A stretch of DNA of 31,291 nt, taken from Tubiluchus corallicola. Its lineage: Eukaryota; Animalia; Priapulida. Under the pieces are notes generated by a model. That model searched no databases and was not told the DNA's origin. It worked only from the letters and a program-made list of their open reading frames with translations. Each line of letters starts with the position of its first letter. Position 1 is the first letter of the stretch. Where the stretch lies: positions 1 through 31,291 of the forward strand of contig JAQGDQ010001640.1 of the NCBI GenBank assembly GCA_030141605.1, in the 5' to 3' direction. A program made the position numbers and the translations under genes. Positions 2,260 to 31,291 of this stretch are shown here, one piece after another.

Positions 2260-3814
2260 GACACACGTGACTCATACCAAAAACGCTGTAAATTTTGTGG
2301 AAAACGACATGTTTTTGGTCGTGATAGTTGCCCTGCATATGGTAAGCAGTGTGCTAAGTGTAAGCAATGGAATCACTTCCAAGTCAAATGTGATTCTCTT
2401 AGAAAATCTGCATCATATAGTAGAAAAAGAAATGTGCGCACCCTTAATCAGCAGTTTTGTGATCTACAGTAACTCAGATACTGATACTGAAAATTCGGAA
2501 AACTACTGGAGTGTGCAAGCGCTTCATTCTTCAAGTGTGAAACCTGGAAATAAAATTTATTTTTGCTATGATGCTGGTGAGTAAGAAACCTATTCGTTTT
2601 CTGATTGACAGTGGTGCAACATGCAATGTGATACCAGCCAGTTTTCTGCCTTCCAATCAGTTGATTGATCATAGTGAGAAAAAATTGCTTTACACGTATG
2701 ATGGAGGAACAACTGAACCAGTGGGTAGTTGTGTTGTTAGAATGATAAATCCTAAAAATGGTGGAAAGTACTTGTGTTGTTAAAATGATAAATCCTAAAA
2801 ATGGTGTAAAGTATAAAGTGTAAGGTAAACTTCCTGGAAAACTGCACCTAGAAGTAGATTCTAATGTACCCTCTGTAGTACATCCACCTAGACGTGTACC
2901 TGTTGCTTTGAAGGATGACTTAAAGAGGGAACTAGATAAACTTGAATCTCAAGAAATTCTTTCTAAAGTCACGACTTCTACAGATTTCGTATCTAGCCTC
3001 CTTGTTCTACGAAAATCAAACAACCAGCTGAGAGTCTGTACAGATCCTCAGGATCTAAATAAAGCTTTGAGGCGAAACCACTATCCTTTAAAGACTATTG
3101 AAGATGTCTTGCCAGATTTGAGTAACCCCAAGGTCTTCAGTATTTTTGATGCCAAGAATGGATTTTGGCAGTGGAACTAGATGAATCTAGTTCTTTCAAA
3201 CCACTTTCAATACACCTTTTGGACATTATCGTTGGTGACGTATGCCTTTTGGCATATCGGTTGCTCCTGAAGAGTACCAACGCAGACAAGATGAGGCTCT
3301 AGAAGGTTTAAAGAATGTTATGAGTGTAGCTGACGATGTGCCAGTTATTGGCAACGGAGCGACACTAGAACTTGCAAATAAGGACCATGATGAAAATGTC
3401 CGAGCTTTTATGCAACATTGCAGAGAGAAAAATTTGGTCTTAAACAAAGAGAAAATTAAGCTGCGACAGAGTAAAGTACAGTTTATTGGTCATGTATTAA
3501 CAAGTGAAAGTCTGATGCCTGATCCAGACAAAGTTAAGGCTATTGTAGAAATGCCTGCCCCACAAGAGGTGTCTGGTGTACGGAGACTTCTGGGATTAGT
3601 TAATTGTCGATCTAAATTTGTTCCTAACTTAAGTGACATGTGCAAGCCACTTAGAGAACTTACTGAGAAAAATGTACTGTGGCACTGGGATGAAACCCAG
3701 GGGAAAGTTTTCCGAACTATAAAATCAGCTATCTCCCAGGAACCTGTACTGCATTACTATGATCCTAAAGAAGAAGTCACCTTACAATGCGATTCTTCTG
3801 AGAAAGGTCTTGGA
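2260..3814 (+). mobile_element. Gypsy (Mag-type) LTR retrotransposon internal fragment: gag zinc knuckles, protease, RT, start of RNase H
   Basis: Double CCHC knuckle CKFCGKRH...CPAYGKQCAKCKQWNHFQVKC, protease FLIDSGATCN, RT LRVCTDPQDLNKAL / DAKNGFWQ / MPFGISVAPE / VADD, RNase H start LQCDSSEKGLG. Several frameshifts and stops. Confidence 0.92.
2729..2813 (+). repeat. 43-bp tandem duplication disrupting the Gypsy protease
   Basis: ttgtgttgtta(g/a)aatgataaatcctaaaaatggtg(g/t)aaagta occurs at 2729 and 2772. Confidence 0.85.
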
Positions 3815-4400
3815 ACTTCAGACTCGAAGCAAATGGAACAAGGAGCAGAAGAATGTTGAAATAGGAGACATGGTATTAGTTCTGGATGAGACACCAAGGG
3901 ATCACTGGATGCTAAGACGGATCATTGAAGCACGGAAAAGCTGTGATGGACTAGTGAGAATTGTGACATTAAAGACTAGAGAAGGGACTCCAAAACGACC
4001 AATTCATAAAATAAGTTTAATCGAATGTAATAATTAGTTGATTTTGTTAAGTATTCATAAGCTGTATGTTTAAGTTAAATTCTGAAGTAGATGTATGTCA
4101 ATTTAGTCAGTCATGATATGTTATTACACTGTTGGTTTCCTTTAATTTTGCAAATGCTGCAGGAAAGCATTTAAGGACGCGGTGTTTTGGATATAAGCAC
4201 GTGGTGCCTCCTGGTGTTTGTTTTTCCTAGTTTAGACAGGTGAGCTGGTACAGGAAATAGGCCATTGGCCTCATTTCACAGTTAGGATATGAAAGTAGTG
4301 AGTCACCGGTATGCGGCAAAGATGTAAGTTTCATTTCTTTACATTTCGTCATGTCATGTTATTGTTAATTATCATTATACCAGTTACTTAATGTTGTGAC
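3815..4400 (+). mobile_element. BEL/Pao LTR retrotransposon 3' end (DUF5641-like C-terminus, PPT-like tract, start of LTR)
   Basis: LQTRSKW...IGDMVLV..E.PR.HW...RII...DGLVRIV..KT...RPIHKI (stop at 4037). PPT-like aaggacgcgg is followed by TGT at 4183. The LTR end is uncertain. Confidence 0.8.
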
Positions 4401-8490: not shown

Positions 8491-10090
8491 GAACATTTCT
8501 TTTTTTGGTAATAAATCGTCATTTTTATTTTATTATTTTGGTTTTTGAGACATGCCGCACGGTGTAGGCCGCGGTGCCATCCGTTCTGCCTCCATTAAAA
8601 GCGGAGAGCAGTCCAATACGTTTATTGGTCCAAAGCTGCGAAATTCGTCTTAAAGCACAAGAAACCCTTTTGTTTGCACAAAGCTAATAAGTGCATTTTG
8701 AAATTGTGTACTTCATCAGTGACTACGTGATAAAAAAAGAAATGCTGTGTATAACGATTTCAGACACATCAAAAAATTGTGATGAGTACGATATTGTCTT
8801 TGTTGTTGCTGATGATGTTCAGCAAGTGTTTAATAACAAGGAAATGAACGTAATTAGTCGATTGGCGAAGATGTTTTTCAGTGGCTATGTACGCAGAAGA
8901 GTAAAAGTATAGAACAGGTGAATCCCAGCAGGAAGAAGCTAAACTTTGCAGTTTCACCGTTTAAAGGTTAGTAAAATCCAGTTACTTTGAGTTTTTTTGC
9001 AGTTCACTTAATGTATTGATTTTTACCAGTCCGCCTACGCATTTTTGCCACAATTAGCGAGCGTTCTCTGTCCAGCTTTTTTGTGTGTGTTTAATAGTCC
9101 CTGTACGAATGCTCTGATTATTTTTTTGAACTTTATGCAATGTTAACTAAACTCGTTTCAAACTTCTTGGTCAATATTAACAAAATTGTATCTACCATAA
9201 TTCTGAGGCCAGAATATATGCTTAGCGACCGAAGTTAAGCAATAAGACTGGCCGGTGGAGAATGGATCGGTGGTCCCAAACGTCATAATCTGGCCCTGTC
9301 CTTGATAAAGCTTAAAAAATTCGTTTTCAAATTTTAAATCAAATACAAATGGTTCTATTCTGCAAAGACCTTGCGTTAGTAAAACTTGTAAAATTAAGCC
9401 CAGCCATTTTACGGTAAGTCGTTTGGAAAAAATACTTTTGCGGTAACCCAATTTTCCCATTCCCCCAATTCGTGGCAGATTCATACCTAGAACATTGAAG
9501 TTAAGAGCAGTGCCATTTTGTTGAAGAGAAATGAACATGATTGGTTTAATATCGGCGTCATACGGTCATTGATGACATAACAGGATGCAAGGCAACGATG
9601 TCACCTAACAAAGGAAATAATCATATCCCATAACAACGCTCTCACAGATGTGTCTCGACCTTCAATGCGATTACACGTGTTATTATTTTGCGAGACCCAT
9701 CTATTATACACAAGTGACTTTTTACAGCTGTTTTTACCTTTCTCTAGTGGAGAGGATGCTTCAACACCACCAAAAGCTTCCCTTTACTGTGCTTCTTGCA
9801 CTCCTTTGTTTAAACTTCGCTTTATTTCGTTTCTTTGTGTAAGTAATTTTCGTCTTGTCTTGTATTGTGTTTTACTGGTGACAGATACCAGCATTATTTC
9901 ATTTCTTTTTCATTTAGATTTTCATTATAAATTAACGTGTCCGATTTTTTTGTAGGTTTCGTTCTGTTTTATGAGATGTTTTGTCACTTTTGTGTCAGTC
10001 TGCTACAGCTAAAGGCAGGCTTCCTTATGAACTGACTTCCACCACTGTGGCTTCCAGTCACGTGTCATTTGTGCTGAGTGAGTTAAGACA

Positions 10091-11267
10091 TTAGTTGAGT
10101 TGAGGACCAAGTTGAATTGTTAGGGAGTTGAGGACCCAGTTGAATTGCTAGTGAGTTGAGGACCAAGTTGAATTGTTAGTGAGTTGATGACCAAGTTGAA
10201 TTGTTAGTGAGTTGAGGACCAAGTTGAATCGTTAGTGAGTTGAGGACCAAGTTGAATTTTTAGTGAGTTGAGAACCAAGTTGAATTGTTAGTGAGTTGAG
10301 GACCAAGTTGAATTGTTAGTGAGTTGATGACCAAGTTGAATTGTTAGTGAGTTGAGGACCAAGTTGAATCGTTAGTGAGTTGAGGACCAAGTTGAATTAT
10401 TAGTGAGTTGAGGACCCAGTTAAATCGTTAGTGAGTTGAGGACCAAGTTGAATTTTTAGTGAGTTGAGGACCAAGTTGAATTGTTAGTGAGTTGAGGACC
10501 AAGTTGAATTGTTAGTGAGTTGAGGACCAAGTTGAATTGTTAGTGAGTTGAGGACCAAGTTGAATTGTTAGTGAGTTGAGGACCAAGTTGAATTGTTAGT
10601 GAGTTGAGGACCAAGTTGAATTGTTAGTGAGTTGAGGACCAAGTTGAATTGTTAGTGAGTTGAGGACCAAGTTGAATTTTTAGTGAGTTGAGGAGCAAGT
10701 TGAATTGTTAGTTGAGTTGAGGACCAAGTTGAATTGTTAGTGAGTTGAGGACCGAGTTGAATTGTTAGTGAGTTGAGGACCAAGTTGAATTGGTAGTGAG
10801 TTGAGGACCAAGTTGAATTGTTAGTGAGTTGAGGACCAAGTTGAATTGTTAGTGAGTTGAGGACCAAGTTGAATTGTTAGTGAGTTGAGGACCAAGTTGA
10901 ATTATTAGTGAGTTGACGACCAAGTTGAATTTTTAGTGAGTTGAGGACCAAGTTGAATTGTTAGTGAGTTAAGGACCAAGTTGAATTGTTAGTGAGTTGA
11001 GGACCAAGTTGAAATGTTAGTGAGATGAGGACCAAGTTGAATTGCTAGTGAGTTGAGGACCAAGTTGAATTGTTAGTGAGTTGAGGACCAAGTTGAATTG
11101 TTAGTGAGTTGAGGACCAAGTTGAATTGTTAGTGAGTTGAGGACCAAGTTGAATTGTTAGTGAGTTGAGGACCAAGGTGAATTGTTAGTGAGTTGAGGAC
11201 CAAGTTGAATTGTTAGTGAGTTGAGGACCAAGTTGGATTGTTAGTGAGTTGAGGACCAAGTTGAATT
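10091..11267. repeat. 28-bp minisatellite, ~42 copies, consensus TTAGTGAGTTGAGGACCAAGTTGAATTG
   Basis: Head-to-tail repeats with period 28 and scattered point variants. No unique spacers. Confidence 0.97.
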
Positions 11268-11752
11268 ACCGTTGTTCGTAAAAAAGCCAAAGAAATTACA
11301 AGACGATTACAAGCCTTACAACTTTTGAAATGTGCATTTTGAAATTGTGTACCTTCTTGTGAAACAAATGTAGGCAACAATGATTAAACCTTGGATAGAT
11401 TTTCACAGCAGTAGTAGCACAGACGTTTGACTGTGAATTTTATTTATTGAACTTCGGGAAGAAAATTGCCTTTTCTTCGTCTTTTAAGAATTGATATTGT
11501 CACACCAAAAAGCAAAAAAATTCTGGCTGCAGTAAACGATTTGTTCCAGTCACAACAGCTAGCATAGAGGTATTCGCACCAACCTAACACCAAACAGATA
11601 AAGTCAGTGACCAACATTTGCTCTCCGATTTTGATAAATTGGCCGATTAATAACAGGCGTCATACAATCTAATGACCCATGTGTGCAAACAAAATATTAG
11701 AACCTCTGCCAGTTCTTATTCTCTCTCTCGAAACCTATAATACTGGAGTGAT

Positions 11753-13246: not shown

Positions 13247-15093
13247 GCTATTAGTTGTAATTACGACTCAGATGATTCGAAGACTTAACACCACAGTGCA
13301 GTAAAAAACGTGCTATTTTAAAGACAAATTACTGAGGTTTAATTGAAACTCGAGTCTTAAAATTATCAGGGAATTTTTCACTAGGATACCTGCTGATAAT
13401 GTCAGTTTCAAAGTTGTCCCAACATGGAACATCTTGGAGCTTAAAATGTGTCGTGCAACAAATTTACTTGGAAATTATTAACGAATCAACAAAAAAGTCG
13501 AGATTATTTAGTAGATTATAGGTTATTAGATTCAACTGTTATTGTTCCAATTATTTTGTGTACTAATGAATACAGTTTAAACTGAAAAAGTCTCATTTAT
13601 TTTAAGTAATAATGGTAGCACATATATGTGAAATGTATTTAATCTTTATTTATTTGTTGTTTATTATCAGTACTCTATTGAAAGTACTCAATTAAGAATG
13701 TTTATACCCTAGCGTGGCTTTGGGGCTAATATGCAAGCACCACTTAAAGTGCAATGGCTTGGCCAAAGGCAGGTATAGTTATTCTATGGAGCAAACTGCA
13801 TCTGACTGATACTATCAATCGCGCAGACTTCCACATCTTAACAATTGATTCTTAAACACTTTAACATATAACAACAATGACATCTCAGACAATAACTTTT
13901 ATAATTTCTATTTGTAATAGATGCACTATAATGCACTGTAGCAAGCGTTAATGCACTGTAACAGTTGAGCAGATTCAAGGACTTGATAACACAGCATGTA
14001 AAAGCATGTTGTAGTTTAATTAAGGTTCGGGTCTTAAAATAATCAACAGACTTGTTCTTGGCCCACCGGCATCCGATAATGTCAATTTTAAAGATGTCAC
14101 AACATGGAATAACTCGGACAGTAGCTTTCAAAATTTCAGTGAAGGTTACAAAGACTTATACGAGAAAGTGTTTCTAGCACGTACAGTGCCATCAGGTAGC
14201 TATACTTTGAATCAAAATACAGAAGCAGCTAGATTGGGGCTGAATTTCCAAACTAGGCCAGCACTTTTTAAAACCGTCCCAGAATGAGTTACGTGGCTAT
14301 AGAAAATAAATGGAGGCTCAATGGGCCCACAGAGTCATCAGATCTGAGTCCGAAGGTCTGACCACATCTTGATTACTAGACATAACCAGAAATGTCGCCA
14401 ACCCAGACCTCAGTTAATAAGCAACGTACATCAGTGATTCTCTTAGCCAGACAATGAAACAGTTACTAACTTCAAGCAGGTGGATAGTTCAATTCCAGAA
14501 CTCTGAAATTTGGTTTTCACAGGAATTTTTACCAGCAATAAATGGCAAAGTCGATGTGGTATTGGCAGACTACCGGAATTTCAAGATTTCATATCCGTCC
14601 TTTTGCCGGCTTCAGTGATAATTTTTAAAATAGCGGTTAAGGAGGCAGTTGAGTCTACATTTGGTGAGGTTGTTGAGGAATTCTAGGAATCACTTAAGCG
14701 ATTCAGAAAACATGTGTTTAACATTCAAAACCAGCATCAACACTGCAGAATGATAAGGCAACAGCTGGAGAATGACAAAGTTCTGCTTCATGTAGACTTC
14801 AGTGAAAACTACGTTTGCCGTTATAGTACTGAAATACAGTCTACACATTTTGGGGCCTCTCATACTCAGGCAACACTTCACACAGGTTGTCTCTATGCTG
14901 GCAGTGATACCCTGCCATTCTGCTCAATTTCATCATCAAGACAGCATGACCCAAGTGCTATATGGGCGCACTTGAGTCCAGTTCAATTAGTCAAAATTAT
15001 CCAGGTGTTGAAAAACATTTTTTCTGATGGTCAGGTGACACAGTAGCGTCAAAAACGAAAATTTTCATTTCTACTTGGAATTTTTTTGAAGCC

Positions 15094-15581
15094 TGTCGCT
15101 TATTGTACGCGATTGTGGTATTATGTAATCTATTTAATTGTCAGTTTTCTACAAATGTTTTTTAGCTGCAGCCTCAATATGCCTCCTCATCTCCTCGTTT
15201 CCATGACTACTGAAAATTAGAATAAGTTTGGAAGAGAAGCAACTAGTGAACTTAATGTATTCTGCTATGAAAGAAGCCATGTAGATTTGATTTTGGTTTA
15301 ACATGTAGAGTATAGGTGACCTTTGCATGAATTTAATGTTTAATGTACCTTCCAATAGGAACTTGTATGTCTGGTCATGTGATTAGAGCTTGATTCTCCC
15401 AGGCATGCAAGTTCCAGTTGGTCTTGAGACAGCATTTGGAGAGGTTGAAAGTTTTCTACTGTAGTGGTATCATAATGTGTCATAAAAGTTTATAATGGTG
15501 AACATTGTACATTTTGCAATAAAATTGTTACAAGTTTTTTTTTACATCTGGTGCCGAAACCCGGGAATGAACCAGGGACCT
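15094..15581 (+). mobile_element. Single LTR (TG..CA, 15094-15546) followed by an extended tRNA-Phe complement
   Basis: Starts TGTCGC, has AATAAA near 15518 and ends TTACA. TGGTGCCGAAACCCGGGA-AT-GAACCAGGGACCT follows at 15549-15581. CCTGTC is present at both junctions (15092-97, 15579-84). Confidence 0.8.
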
Positions 15582-15821
15582 GTCATGGAAAGGGAACTCC
15601 AGATGGAATAGGAGGCGTTTTATAAAGAACTGCAGACAGACTGACTAGGAGGGTGCCAATATTCCTACACCTAGAGAACTGTTTGAAGCACTGAAGAAAG
15701 CCACTTCAATAAAGCTTTTCTTTGTTGAAGACGAGGAAGTTTTGCATGAGAGTGCTACTATGAAATTAGTTGAAAATCACATAAAGACTGTAGCTGGAAC
15801 AATGTGCATACATCAAGTCAT

Positions 15822-17126
15822 TGCAGTGGACTATATTAAGTTGCGTATTGTTAGTATGTTCAACAAGTCAAGATGGATGGACATGAACGTGTAACACTAT
15901 TGTCTCTACTATCTAGTTTACTTTATGGTGTCAGATTAGTGCAGAGATAGAACCAACAATGAGAAACGCATTACCATAAATGGGAGTTTACCGGTACGTG
16001 ATGTGTTATCGAAATTTAGCGTGAAAAACTATTTATTATCGAACCAGATTCGTCGTTCTACATACAGCGTGACGGCGGTCGCGTTATCGTAGTGCGGATT
16101 GATACATGATTAGTAAAACGGTCTTTGATGTTTCGGAGTTATTTTTCAACGTTATTATCGAGACCCGTGGGGGATATTGGAAATGAGAACACAGCATACA
16201 TAAGATAAAATCGCGACGTGTACAGCAACGAATTTTTTTATACACGTGAACTGATAAATCACACAGACGTTAAACACACTTAAAGGACATGGCCGATAAA
16301 ATTCCAATTATCAACTGGTATGCTACAAACGTGGCAGAGGCATTCAAATTCTTTCGACAAAAGATGGACATTTTCTTCCAAATTAAAAACATTGAAGGGG
16401 AGAAACAGGTAGCATATCTGCTTAGAGGTGTGGATGATGAAGGATTATGCAGGTACAATTCATGGACGCTATCCGAAGAACAGAAGAGAGATCCAACACA
16501 CATTTGGAAGTGTTTGGAAGAACAATTAAAAGTAGCAGTGGAAAATTTTCGCGTAGCACGATTGCAACTTCATTACTTTTACCAAACTGAGCAAGATGCT
16601 GTTAAGGCTCTACCCTTTTTTGATGGAGAAAATGTTGCCTGGGAAAGCTATGAAGCCCAATTTTAATTATTAATGACTGCAAATAATTGGACTGATAATG
16701 AAGCTGGGACTTGTCTAAACGATTTCGTAACAAGGTGCCGTGAAAAAGCACTAATGTGCGACTTTACAGAACAGGAACGTTCTGAACGCATCACAGAACA
16801 AATAATAGCATCTACAGCGATACCAGAATATCAGAAATTCCTCTTGGACCAACCAAAAGGATACAGTTTGGATGATGCTTTAGAACATGGACGAACATTC
16901 GAAGCTGCAATAGTTAACCATCAACATTTACGAACAATGAATGCCAGTGCCAACAACTCAGCCATCAGTGAGAATGTTAGTGCAATCAAACGTAAAACTA
17001 AATAGAGAATCCAACAAACAGTGTGTAAATGTTGTGGGCGTGACCATCCTCGAGGAAAAGATTCGTGCCCAGCCAGAAATTCAACGTGCCTCCTCAACTA
17101 TTGTCTCTACTATCTAGTTTACTTTA
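15822..17126 (+). mobile_element. Internally deleted Mag-type Gypsy element (short 5' LTR, PBS, gag, 3' LTR remnant) with 5-bp TSD GTCAT
   Basis: TSD at 15817-21 and 17127-31. 5' LTR 15822-15925, whose last 30 bp are identical at 17097-17126. PBS TGGTGTCAGA at 15926 (tRNA-Leu type). gag 16289-17090 ends in CKCCGRDH...CPARNSTC. Confidence 0.88.
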
Positions 17127-17417
17127 GTCATCTGGCTCAACACTCACAGCATTTATGTAAGGGATATTAGTTGTCCAACTTGCAAAGCAAAATGTGAATG
17201 TGTCTCCGTGGGAAAACTGTTGAATTGCTCAAACCGAAAACTTGGCAGTCAGTATGAGAGCCATGTACTGACAAGAGTCAGAAGCAACCAGAGTCTAAAG
17301 GAACTTACAGCCACAACAACTGATGAAATTTTTGAAGTCGGGAAATGGTGTCTTGTGGAATATGAGGAGAAATTTTATCCAGGAATTATTCAGCAGGTAG
17401 AGGAATCTGATGTGCAG

Positions 17418-17619
17418 CCCCAGTATACATGCGTGTTGTTAGGATTATCAACTTTATCCCTTTTGCAATGTTACCCTTTTGTTTTCAACTTCTTTGTTTT
17501 TGGGTTGCGCTCATCTTTCTAGTTACAACCTCGTTGCTTTGCGAGTTACAATAAAGTTGTTAAATTTATTCTTGTCGTCTTGGTGTTTGAGACAAAGCTG
17601 GTACATTCATTAATTAATG
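17418..17619 (+). mobile_element. ~200-bp LTR-like insert in the Sola2 transposase, flanked by GTGCAG direct repeats
   Basis: GTGCAG at 17412-17 and 17620-25, AATAAA near 17550. The transposase reads SDVQ|VD across it. Confidence 0.6.
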
Positions 17620-18062
17620 GTGCAGGTAGACTTACATGTGTGCTGCAGGAAAAAACAGGTTTTTTGGCCAGTAATTAAAGACTTATGCTGGTACAGCTTC
17701 GACAAAATAATTTTAATTGATGAAGTAAAACCTGTCACAAATATTCTGAGACACTTCCAAGTGGAAGAGACAGTGTGGCAAAAGTATGCATCAATGTAGG
17801 GCTCAATTTGTTAGTTTAACAATGGGGCATAAGTTTAAAGCATTCCAAAACATAATTGTAAGAATAAATCTTTTCAAGTTTTAAATCTTAGAAACAATTT
17901 CGAATTTTTCATCATCTAAATTTAAAAACATTCACAGTTGAAACAGGCAGCTGTGAAAATGTGTGGAACAAACCAGACTTTGCCATACTGAGTGTGGCAC
18001 AGCTTAATAATGTTTCTTAGAAATGACCGCCTGTGAAATGACCACATTAGATTAGCACCAAT

Positions 18063-18605
18063 ATGGAACTGGCATCTATAATTCTGTTGTCATTGACATG
18101 GCTCTACTTTGACGCATGTCTTACCAAGTTGACTGCTATGCCAGCTGACATTGCATTTAACAACGTAACAGGACTGCCCGCTGAACCAAGGATTCGAGGT
18201 GGAGAAAAAATTTTTGAAAGAGAATTTCCTTACATAGTTTCTCTTCTTTTAGGGGTGGAGTGTTGTGGAGGTATCCTCATCGATCATGTATGGGTCCTGA
18301 CAGCCGCTCATTGTTTTATGAGAGTCGAAGAACCCAGACGACACTTGAGTCAATTTGGAGGACAACAGTGTGTTTGACTCGCCAGTAATGCGCTGGATTC
18401 GGTGGTATCATACGCATGATCTTTTCGACCCAGGTGGAACAGCTGTGCAAACTCATGATATTGCCCTGGTGCGATTAAACAGGCGTATTGAGTACACCGT
18501 CATTATCGGAGGTCAGTATGATATCCTGCCTGCTAAGCTGCCCGTTTGTGACAGAGATCATTATATTAATGAAGCGTCTTTTGTAGCAGGATGGGGAACC
18601 CTGTG
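18063..18605 (+). pseudogene. Intronless trypsin-like (S1) serine protease pseudogene, 3'-truncated
   Basis: Signal-like N-terminus, activation site RIRGG, CGGILI..WVLTAAHC, HDIALVRL, VAGWGTL. Frameshift near 18355. The GDSGG motif is absent. Confidence 0.88.
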
Positions 18606-19115
18606 GAATTAAATATTTAACTTTGCGTATTTAATCTCATGTAGTACACACCTTGAGTATAGTTAAATATTTATCCATGTAATATATATGCATTAGTAAA
18701 GTATTTTGATTCAGAGTTAACCGGCCCTACCGTAGAGAACATTCTTTATTATTAAGAGAGGAGTAAAGGAAAGCCCTTTTAAATAGTGATTTTGATTAAA
18801 CTGGTGATTTAATTATTAAATTAATAACTCAAGATTAAATGCTTTACGATGCAAAATTGAATCATTGTGCTAGGTGTGACATATCACGTGATGATCAGCT
18901 GATGTTCCACCAGCTGACTCAGAAGTAAAGATTGATTATGTAATCCTTATGCGCAGAAGCTCATGGAGCATCAGGTAGTTAGAAAAGAGGATTTCGAGGC
19001 CCGCACCTCGGGGGAGATGAGGAACTGACTTGAAGATGGAGGGCTGGCATTACTATCCTCTTATATTTACCGTGTTGTGTTTGATCTTTAATAAATATGT
19101 AGTTTGCTAAATAAA
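18606..19115. repeat. Dispersed ~510-bp repeat, copy 1
   Basis: Collinear with, but diverged from, 20332-20858 in direct orientation. Confidence 0.9.
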
Positions 19116-19272
19116 TCACTGGTTTACCAACAGTTATACATGATCATAACTGTTATACATGCTATTCATTATGCCTTTTTAGATTCGTCTTGAAACTTCA
19201 TCTTGTCACTGAGTAAAAATATTGCTGTGCGAGTAAGAAAATTGTTAGCTGTTTTATTCATGTCCACCCATA

Positions 19273-19491
19273 CACACAACAGTGGGTTCGTGCAAATGTT
19301 TCGAAATTGCAGATGGTGCGACGAACTTTTTCACTTGAATCATCCTCGTTCCCCCCTCTCTCTTTCTCTCTCTCTCCCTCTCTCTCGCTCTCTCTCTGGC
19401 TGTCTGTGACACGCACAACAGTGGGTTCGTACAAATATTTCGAAATTGTGGATGGTGTGATGATTTTTTTCGGTTGAATCATCCTCATTTC

Positions 19492-19562
<71 letters not shown>

Positions 19563-19608
19563 TCTCTCTCTCTCTTCATCCCTCCCTCCCTCTTTCTCTC
19601 TCTCTCTT
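19273..19608. repeat. Two ~80-bp units each followed by a C/(CT)n microsatellite
   Basis: cacaacagtgggttcgt...ttgaatcatcctc occurs twice. Long (CT)n at about 19502-19575. Confidence 0.88.
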
Positions 19609-20331
19609 TGACACGTGCAAAAGAAAAATCGAAATTGCTCTTTCATAAATGATACGTCCTACCCTCCAGACAAATTCTTCTTTTTCGTCAGCATCTGCCA
19701 CATTCACTGATGACATGATCTCACTTAAGAGACGAGGAATGGTGGAATAGATATCAGAACAAGAGCATTGAATCTACCGGGAGATAGTAAAAAAGGCTTT
19801 TACTTTGATGTTAATCTCATTATCCTCTAGATAATGTACTTATTACTTGTGATATAAGGCCTGTAGAAATTGTATATTTACTGTACAGTCAATTGGAAAT
19901 GTGTAATCCCATCATTGGTGTCACGGGGTAGTAGTCCGAGCATGATAATTATAGTATTTTAGGATGAAACTTTTAATGGATCAATAGTGTGACTTATTTA
20001 ATGCAAACTACTGTATATATTTTGAGTCCATTATAATCTAGCTTAATATAATTAGTATCAATTGTAGTTTACGTATAATTGTTTGTATAATCATTTGTCA
20101 TAGACATTGCATGATATTTTAAAACTTAGGATATTTTCAACTTATAATATTTTGAAACTGGCGTACCCACACGTACGATAATCAGTTACGTCAAGGTGCA
20201 ACAGATGGCGCCACATAAATATACATTCCTTATCTATATGTGTAGTAATTTCATGTTGCTATGACTTACCATGTTGTCGAATTGAAACAGTTAACCGTGT
20301 GTATTTAACCTCATATGACAAACGCGTTGTT

Positions 20332-20858
20332 GAATTAAATATTTAACTTTCCGTATTTAATCTCATGTAGTACGCACCTTGAGTATAGTTGAATATTTGT
20401 ATTACGCAATGTAATATATATGCATCAGTAAAGTATTTTAATTCAGAGTTAACCAGCCCTACCGTAGAGAACTTTCTTTATTAGGAAGAGAGGAGTAAAC
20501 AAAAGCCGTTTTAAATAGTGATTTTGATTAAACTGGCGATTAAACTATTAAATTAAAAATTCAAGATTAAATGCGTGACGACGCAAAATTAAATTATCGT
20601 CATGGCTAGAAGCCCAGCTAGGTTTGGCATAGCACGTGATCAGCTGATGTTCGACCGGCTGACTCAGAAGTAAAGACCGATGATGTAATTCTTATGCACA
20701 GAAGCTCATTGCGCATTAGGTAGTTAGACAAAAGTGTTTTGAGGCCCGCACCTTGGGAGATCAGGAACAGACTTGAAGACGGAAGGCTGGCATTATTATC
20801 CTCTTATATTTACCGTGTTCTGTTTAATATTTAATAAATGTGTAGTTTATTAAATAAA
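20332..20858. repeat. Dispersed ~525-bp repeat, copy 2
   Basis: Matches 18606-19115 from gaattaaatatttaac to taaataaa. Confidence 0.9.
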
Positions 20859-21134
20859 GTCTTGATAGTTTGCCATGCCCATTGTAGCTGTCTCATATGC
20901 CACGCAATAAACAACAATAATCAGCAAGCAGCTTTAACCACAATACTAAACAGACTTTAACGCCACCACTACACCAGTTGTTTTACTGTTACCCTACGCT
21001 TCGACAATAAGATAGGGGGTTGTGTATAGGCCTCCAAATTTTTCATTTGAAACTTATTCCTTTCTATTTAAGCGTATACATGATATTGCTGCTGTTGGCT
21101 CACCCAATTTTATTTTGTGTGATGACTAATTTTC

Positions 21135-30043: not shown

Positions 30044-30210
30044 TATCACAAAGATATCAAAAGTGTCTATTAAGTTTTAAAATTTTTCTTTTTTTCACAG
30101 ACGATTTCATCCTTCATGAACTGTGATATGCAAATAAAGGATGAAAATTTCTGTGAAAATAAAAAAATTGCGACTCAAAGAAGCACTGTGACACCTTTAC
30201 GATTGTGATC
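30044..30210. repeat. Imperfect inverted repeat (foldback) abutting the satellite
   Basis: ttttcacagacgatttcatcctt pairs with aaggatgaaaattttctgtgaaaa. Weaker outer arms atcacaa..aagtgtc / gacacc..ttgtgat. Confidence 0.6.
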
Positions 30211-31291
30211 ACAGCAAGTGTCGGAAGAGTACTACCTTCTTCATACTATAGAGGTAACTAAGAGTGATCTTCTCCTGACTCCTGCGAGGAGAGTTATGAT
30301 CACAGCAAGTGTCAGAAGAGTACTACATTCTTCATACTATAGAGGTAACTAAAAGTGATCTTCTTCTGACTCCTGCAAGGAGAGTTATGATCACAGCAAG
30401 TGTCAGAAGAGTACTACCTTCTTCATACTATAGAGGTAACTAAAAGTGATCTTCTTCTGACTCCTGCGAGGAGAGTTATGATCATCAAGTGTCAGAAGAG
30501 TACTACCTTCTTCATACTATAGAGGTAACTAAAAGTGATCTTCTTCTGACTCCTGCAAGGAGAGTTATGATCACAGCAAGTGTCAGAAGAGTACTACCTT
30601 CTTCATACTATAGAGGTAACTAAAAGTGATCTTCTTCTGCTCCTGCGAGGAGAGTTATGATCATCAAGTGTCAGAAGAGTACTACCTTCTTCATACTATA
30701 GAGGTAACTAAGAGTGATCTTCTCCTGACTCCTGTGAGGAGAGTTATGATCACAGCAAGTGTCAGAAGAGTACTACCTTCTTCATACTATAGAGGTAACT
30801 AAGAGTGATCTTCTCCTGACTCCTGTGAGGAGAGTTATGATCATCAAGTGTCAGAAGAGTACTACCTTCTTCATACTATAGAGGTAACTAAGAGTGATCT
30901 TCTCCTGACTCCTGTGAGGAGAGTTATGATCACAGCAAGTGTCAGAAGAGTACTACCTTCTTCATACTATAGAGGTAACTAAGAGTGATCTTCTCCTGAC
31001 TCCTGTGAGGAGAGTTATGATCACGTGAAGTGTCAGAAGAGTACTACCTTCTTTATACTATAGACATAACTAAGAGTGATCTTCTCCTGACTCCTGTGAG
31101 GAGAGTTATGATCACGTGAAGTGTCAGAAGAGTACTACCTTCTTTATACTATAGACATAACTAAAAGTGATCTTCTCCTGACTCCTGCGAGGAGAGTTAT
31201 GATCATCAAGTGTCAGAAGAGTACTACCTTCTTCATACTATAGAGGTAACTAAAAGTGATCTTCTTCTGACTCCTGCAAGGAGAGTTATGA
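30206..31291. repeat. 89-91-bp tandem satellite, 12 units, running off the window end
   Basis: GAGTTATGA recurs at 30291, 30382, 30473, 30562, 30652, 30741, 30832, 30921, 31012, 31103, 31194, 31283. Confidence 0.97.

Follow-up and report, generated by a model that had tools for sequence, protein, structure and literature searches.

The window (the whole stretch of DNA that was analyzed, 31,291 nt) contains a decayed mobile-element-like ORF that is interrupted by a 487-bp insert, with one copy of a 6-bp direct repeat at each boundary (Table 1). The chance of a 6-bp direct repeat at fixed insert ends is 3.6e-4. Within the insert, an LTR-like segment is followed by a complement of the 3' portion of tRNA-Phe, and directly past the right copy of the repeat the host ORF resumes; as the original prediction had stated, there is no internal element sequence after the tRNA copy.

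Table 1. Features of the insert and of the interrupted host ORF, in window coordinates.
Feature	Position	Strand	Comment
Host: decayed mobile-element-like ORF, family without Pfam match, upstream part	14624..15097	+	48% identity over 157 aa to P0001
Left copy of 6-bp direct repeat	15092..15097	+	Final four bases could alternatively form the start of the LTR
LTR-like segment, 453 bp, 34% GC, terminal CA	15094..15546	+	LTR identity from anatomy
Polyadenylation-type signal AATAAA	15518..15523	+	31 nt upstream of primer site
Spacer, 2 nt, from terminal CA to primer site	15547..15548	+	
Primer-binding site, 18 nt	15549..15566	+	Perfect complement of mature tRNA-Phe(GAA) 76-59, including CCA
Mismatch at tRNA position 58	15567..15567	+	A in cDNA sense, T expected from genes
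Over-extension, complement of tRNA-Phe 57-44	15568..15581	+	Last three bases common to target repeat
Right copy of 6-bp direct repeat	15579..15584	+	
Host ORF resumes directly after insert	15585..15821	+	Goes on at 17132-17781 past second insertion

A HMMER search with the downstream host piece returned five proteins, of which four are blank in Pfam and one (P0002) was rejected as a spurious homolog; a word-indexed protein search for the host gave nothing among 74 candidates. P0001 and P0003 align on both sides of the insert, with upstream identities of 48% and 40% respectively. When the 487 bp are skipped, residues 134-165 of P0003 align without gaps across the junction at 62.5% identity, and P0001 is likewise gap-free over the junction motif. 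Because skipping the insert restores these gap-free alignments, we conclude that exactly 487 bp were added with the host register left intact, and that no other element remnant remains. The junction codon encodes Cys in the window and Ser in both homologs, and judging from these two distant relatives the middle base of the 6-bp repeat may not be host-derived.

The same host ORF is interrupted again 240 bp further on by a gypsy-like element (15822-17126) with a 104-bp 5' LTR, a 10-nt tRNA-Met primer site, a leader, and a gag that includes a CCHC knuckle; the host frame is restored when this element is skipped. Its LTR ends are flush with a 5-bp target duplication (15817-15821 and 17127-17131), and a deletion has left no more of the 3' LTR than its final 30 bp. 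We considered whether it could be a second captured intermediate, given its Met primer site and 30-bp repeat, and rejected this on account of the 5-bp duplication, the 104-bp LTR and the deletion. It is an ordinary integrase insertion, and it also shows that large deletions have occurred at this locus. Within its gag, some 40 codons at about 16595-16715 resemble, by eye, part of another gag that was inserted in frame with matching orientation.

More broadly, the Pfam mobile-element domains of the window all lie on the plus strand (five matches in four elements; the 70 frames examined include 22 minus-strand ones). This strand test left out five of the 75 frames (at least 70 codons, simple repeats), and one run also left out frames overlapping the insert. 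Adding the two elements that are oriented by their primer sites gives six of six on the plus strand (two-sided sign test, 0.03), and the window may be a trap locus with strand bias, for instance a piRNA cluster. The plus-strand Pfam pieces fall between 724 and 27824 and include a LINE reverse transcriptase (RT) at 724, gypsy protease and RT at 2541-3856, a DUF5641 at 3723 and a LINE endonuclease at 21011; additional LINE-like plus-strand frames can be made out by eye. At 3239-4037 the gypsy RT/RNase H breaks off and is directly followed by a fragment of DUF5641, a domain that we take to be BEL/Pao-associated. There are also tandem arrays at 9964-11400 and 30112-31291, with periods of 28 bp and about 90 bp, and at 18051-18377 and 18602-20858 a trypsin-like fragment on the plus strand lies beside a duplicated segment of about 500 bp, the copies of which are 1.73 kb apart and 86-94% identical.

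Returning to the 487-bp insert, the 453-bp segment is judged to be an LTR by anatomy only, that is, by its terminal CA, its AATAAA, the 2-nt spacer and the primer site. Its 5' start could be the TG at 15094, the TG at 15104, or a truncated start at 15098. The segment is noncoding, with longest stop-free frames of 41 codons on the plus strand and 77 on the minus strand, and a TATA-like motif lies at 15491, 27 nt ahead of AATAAA. No second copy of it is present within the window, no purine tract was found at its 5' side, and no gag-pol coding sequence is linked to the insert.

This arrangement has the form of an over-extended plus-strand strong-stop DNA: a terminal CA is followed by a primer site that pairs with the last 18 nt of a mature tRNA, CCA included, the tRNA complement runs beyond position 58 to 47-44 with one mismatch, and the piece contains neither internal element sequence nor a purine tract. 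Such a product would also begin with the first base of U3, for which the candidates are the three starts given above. It differs from an integrase insertion, in which TG and CA at both ends are flush with a 4-6 bp duplication, and from a TRIM or Helenus element, in which a primer site and a purine tract lie between two LTRs. It is also unlike a tRNA gene or tRNA-derived SINE, which would show a full cloverleaf or both the A and B boxes, would not encode CCA and would have its tail flush with a duplication. The insert has just tRNA positions 76-44, together with CCA; ARAGORN calls no tRNA genes in the window, and an Rfam scan of the window gave no tRNA family, only three weak unrelated matches (E 0.11-3.5). 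A solo LTR would have TG...CA flush with the duplication and no primer site, so the retained primer site and tRNA copy exclude an origin by LTR recombination, in agreement with the original prediction.

The junctions are informative but ambiguous in detail. At the 3' junction the insert ends in tRNA sequence and not in CA, and an integrase-type 3' end is directly seen to be absent. Bases 15579-15581 are both the last three that match the tRNA and the first three of the right repeat, an overlap between insert 3' end and target with a chance of about 0.01, and because of this overlap the tRNA-derived part is 30-33 nt long. Eight readings of the junctions fit, ranging from a 6-bp duplication with a 5'-truncated LTR through to a near-blunt joint with two-sided microhomology. 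None of the eight has integrase ends on both sides, and if a 6-bp duplication is assumed the 5' end of the insert is not TG. The original prediction had proposed capture through microhomology on both sides; this does fit the junctions, but several readings fit equally well and it needs an unproven LTR start.

To evaluate the tRNA portion, we used tRNA-Phe genes from other eukaryotes, not from this species, which were fetched from metagenome contigs by a motif scan and called by ARAGORN. The motif comprises 28 letters, with positions 58 and 57 free and all other positions exact, and the scan yielded at least 122 loci and at least 128 matches, with at least 119 tRNA-Phe genes called by ARAGORN. 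The complement in the window begins at 15549, opposite position 76 with CCA included, so that 15567 lies opposite position 58. The best-fitting tRNA-Phe variants, which carry A57, match the window from 76 to 44 with A58, read as T, as the sole mismatch, and the next mismatch against the best genes is at position 43; the coordinates, the alignment and the single mismatch as originally described are thus borne out against these ARAGORN-called genes from other eukaryotes. A 15-nt extension with at most one mismatch has a chance of about 9e-8. G57 is present in 70 of 90 73-nt tRNA-Phe genes among the matches listed, all from other eukaryotes, and if the tRNA-Phe of this species has G57 there would be two adjacent mismatches instead of one.

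Among the 128 motif matches listed, 123 lack CCA and are gene-type. All 123 of these listed matches have the gene base at position 58 (95 of 95 after deduplication), 122 continue into the anticodon arm, and at position 57 they are divided 93 to 30 between two variants. The five listed matches that carry CCA (L013, L038, L107, L090 and L103) represent three independent loci, L038 and L107 being one locus seen twice and L090 and L103 likewise. Position 58 is unchanged in L013, L038 and L107, that is, in two of the three independent comparison loci among the matches listed, and carries the same change as the window in L090 and L103. Among the matches listed and with the window excluded, the change at 58 is therefore found in none of 95 gene-type sequences and in one of three independent CCA-bearing loci (Fisher p 0.031), a comparison based on very few loci. 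A Fisher value of 0.0012 that includes the window was set aside because the window was the query, as was the count of A58 in 233 of 233 across all ARAGORN genes because ARAGORN itself favors A58.

The presence of CCA indicates that the template was a mature tRNA rather than a gene, and in plus-strand synthesis m1A58 would be encountered immediately after the 18-nt primer site. A laboratory RT misincorporates dATP very efficiently where m1A is followed by U (PMC4787781). U59 is present in 89 of the 90 73-nt tRNA-Phe genes among the matches listed, and in the window, and the mismatch base at 58 fits this m1A-U context rule for dATP. A random single substitution would give both position 58 and the exact base about 1 time in 100, a chance that is low but not negligible, the locus having been picked for its mismatch. 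We think it likely, from sequence comparison, that the mismatch records the methyl mark of m1A58 through dATP misincorporation. This part of the original prediction, like its proposal that the tRNA extension arose from an RT intermediate, is well supported by the independent loci and by published work.

Among the matches listed, an LTR-like end immediately precedes the tRNA copy in all three independent CCA-bearing loci. The stop points are at 46 (L013), 43 (L038/L107) and 38-36 (L090/L103), and different sequence follows the tRNA copy in each; the LTR and purine-tract labels used for L013, L038 and L103 are readings of the sequence alone. Because both stop points and continuations differ, recurrent RT accidents fit better than a single inherited long primer site. 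The LTR-like segment of the window has no significant similarity to L013, L038 or L103 (best E 0.63). The recurrence bears on the possibility that the window contains a LINE-retroposed tRNA 3' fragment beside unrelated DNA, or the remnant of an ordinary element in which position 58 was substituted by chance. LINE machinery does copy tRNA fragments (PMC13174262), and decayed LINEs are abundant in the window, but the 6-bp repeat encloses the LTR-like segment together with the tRNA copy as a single insert, the tRNA complement occupies the place of a primer site, 2 nt past a terminal CA with AATAAA upstream, and the arrangement recurs in three of three independent CCA-bearing loci among the matches listed. 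We regard this explanation as extremely improbable.

L013 (551-831) has a 144-bp LTR-like unit, a 31-nt tRNA-Phe copy to position 46, a jump into the LTR interior and a second LTR end, with a 5-bp duplication flush with TG and CA; we read it as an integrase-inserted product of deferred second-strand transfer. A similar history can be considered for the window, in which second-strand transfer was deferred, with the over-extended plus strand jumping to a point further downstream on the minus strand, integrase inserted the completed DNA, and a later microhomology deletion ran from the tRNA copy into the right target duplication. Transfer and integration of this kind have been reported for HIV-1 (PMC12657518), L013 displays the over-extension, the jump and the integrase insertion with a 5-bp duplication, the neighboring Met-primed element has lost most of its body by deletion, and the TG at 15094 could be an integrase junction. 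We nonetheless consider it unlikely, since the four target bases following the cut would have to equal the first four of the LTR by chance (0.003), and the deletion would have to end a few bases from the old right junction with the host register kept.

L038/L107 (L038 on the minus strand) has an LTR-like end, a 34-nt tRNA-Phe copy to position 43, a purine tract and a second LTR-like copy, and thus appears to have the form of a newborn TRIM. A layout of this type (LTR, tRNA copy, purine tract, LTR) could propagate, so that the long tRNA complement might be native to a family founded by over-extension in a TRIM-like element, with the window containing a deletion remnant that inherited the mismatch. 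Native complementarity extending a few bases past the primer site is reported in lentiviruses (PMC13191261). Reported native over-extension goes no further than about position 55-54, the window lacks a purine tract as well as a second LTR, L038 and L107 represent a single locus and not a family, and the same exact deletion is required as for an integrase-inserted deferred-transfer product; we judge a native long site to be very unlikely.

In the third locus, L090/L103, an LTR-like end with AATAAA leads into a 76-bp tandem unit present in 4.8 copies that run off the locus (L103 1-369), each unit consisting of the LTR-like end and a tRNA-Phe copy to 38-36. The change at 58 is kept in five of five tandem units, and the remaining mismatches are mostly unit-specific. 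The array could have arisen through successive jumps of RT on a single primer, or by amplification at a later time.

Taken together, we favor as the probable explanation that the insert is an over-extended plus-strand strong-stop DNA, whose synthesis passed m1A58 and which was joined to a chromosome break without integrase. A tRNA-Phe-primed LTR retrotransposon would have copied its plus strand over the LTR and into the still-attached primer, and RT would then have bypassed m1A58 by placing dATP opposite it and continued to 47-44, a step that is strongly supported. As is established in retrovirology, a 3' end of this kind is unpaired with the minus-strand primer site, and normal second-strand transfer fails. 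In the final and weakest step, host end-joining through 2-4 bases of microhomology may have patched the dead-end DNA into a break in the decayed mobile-element ORF, the insert then becoming fixed in the germline. The route of entry into the chromosome is less certain than the form of the insert as an RT product. The template could also have been a minus strand with the tRNA still attached, either minus-strand strong-stop DNA with a long R or a longer, internally primed minus strand; a broken chromosome end would have primed synthesis on it, and RT acting at the break would have gone on into the tRNA. This predicts an identical sequence with an identical mismatch, the idea is compatible with the insert as long as the LTR transcription start is not fixed, and captured Ty1 pieces include minus-strand intermediates (PMC11372161). 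However, the spacing between the TATA-like motif and AATAAA suggests a short R and an insert that is mostly U3, and RT activity would be required at the break itself. We rate such break-primed copying as highly improbable, and return to direct capture of plus-strand strong-stop DNA as the preferred reading.

If this reading is correct, inherited DNA bears a legible mark of a tRNA base modification, and an animal-type genome contains, as a fixed insertion, the sort of dead-end product seen in HIV-1 proviruses and in yeast break repair. No function is evident for this single 487-bp insert, which lies within a decayed mobile gene. Recovery of at least three further loci from one scan suggests that the class is easy to mine, and some TRIMs and satellites may owe their origin to over-copied primer tRNAs. 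More tentatively, it is possible that over-copied primer tRNAs are common but overlooked fossils of animal germlines that record tRNA modifications and give rise to new sequence types. If so, the record of modification would comprise the mismatch at m1A58 and the stop near position 37, and the ways in which such copies are resolved would include direct capture (the window), elements truncated but inserted by integrase (L013), minimal elements resembling TRIMs (L038) and tandem satellites (L103). Both tRNA modification and RT read-through would then be readable in lineages and from times without RNA data.

Capture of Ty1 cDNA at yeast breaks was reportedly described by Moore and Haber 1996, Teng et al. 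1996, and Yu and Gabriel 1999. In yeast, Ty1 cDNA intermediates are captured at double-strand breaks by end joining (PMC11372161); the breaks there were induced in the laboratory, and the section of that paper describing capture does not say that extra nucleotides come from tRNA and mentions no modification signature. Helenus TRIMs are short noncoding animal LTR elements with tRNA-derived sequence (PMC10886601), and they have two LTRs, a primer site and a purine tract, their tRNA-like sequence being located within the LTR. The insert instead has one LTR and no purine tract, and its tRNA copy continues the primer site. We found no description of a germline single LTR with an over-extended tRNA copy joined to host DNA in an invertebrate, in a search that took in neither supplements nor most subscription journals.

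In retroviruses, plus-strand synthesis normally stops before m1A58, with minor products ending at 55, 54 or 37, and products that reach past 54 are unable to undergo the usual second transfer (PMC13191261, PMC8599865). Relative to these stops, L103 ends at 38-36, near the position-37 stop, and the tRNA copy of the insert ends at 47-44, off all of them; because 47-44 matches no listed RT stop, it was probably trimming or microhomology that determined where this copy ends. The closest counterparts are in HIV-1, in which 44 proviruses have 7-54 nt of tRNA-Lys3 copied past the primer site, with the same change at 58 in five of the 44 and a change at 54 in none (Hardy et al. 2025, PMC12657518). These resemble the insert in lying in integrated DNA and in the order of LTR end, 18-nt primer site and further primer-tRNA bases, and the position-58 change is termed a sequence mutation by the authors. 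They are somatic proviruses in which downstream viral sequence follows the tRNA copy, whereas in the insert the tRNA copy joins host DNA directly. The insert further differs in having a single LTR and a tRNA-Phe primer, and it comes from a genome assembly, where it interrupts a decayed mobile gene. Each part of the favored reading nonetheless has a precedent: in HIV-1, copying that runs on into the primer tRNA and shows a change at 58, and in yeast, cDNA capture.
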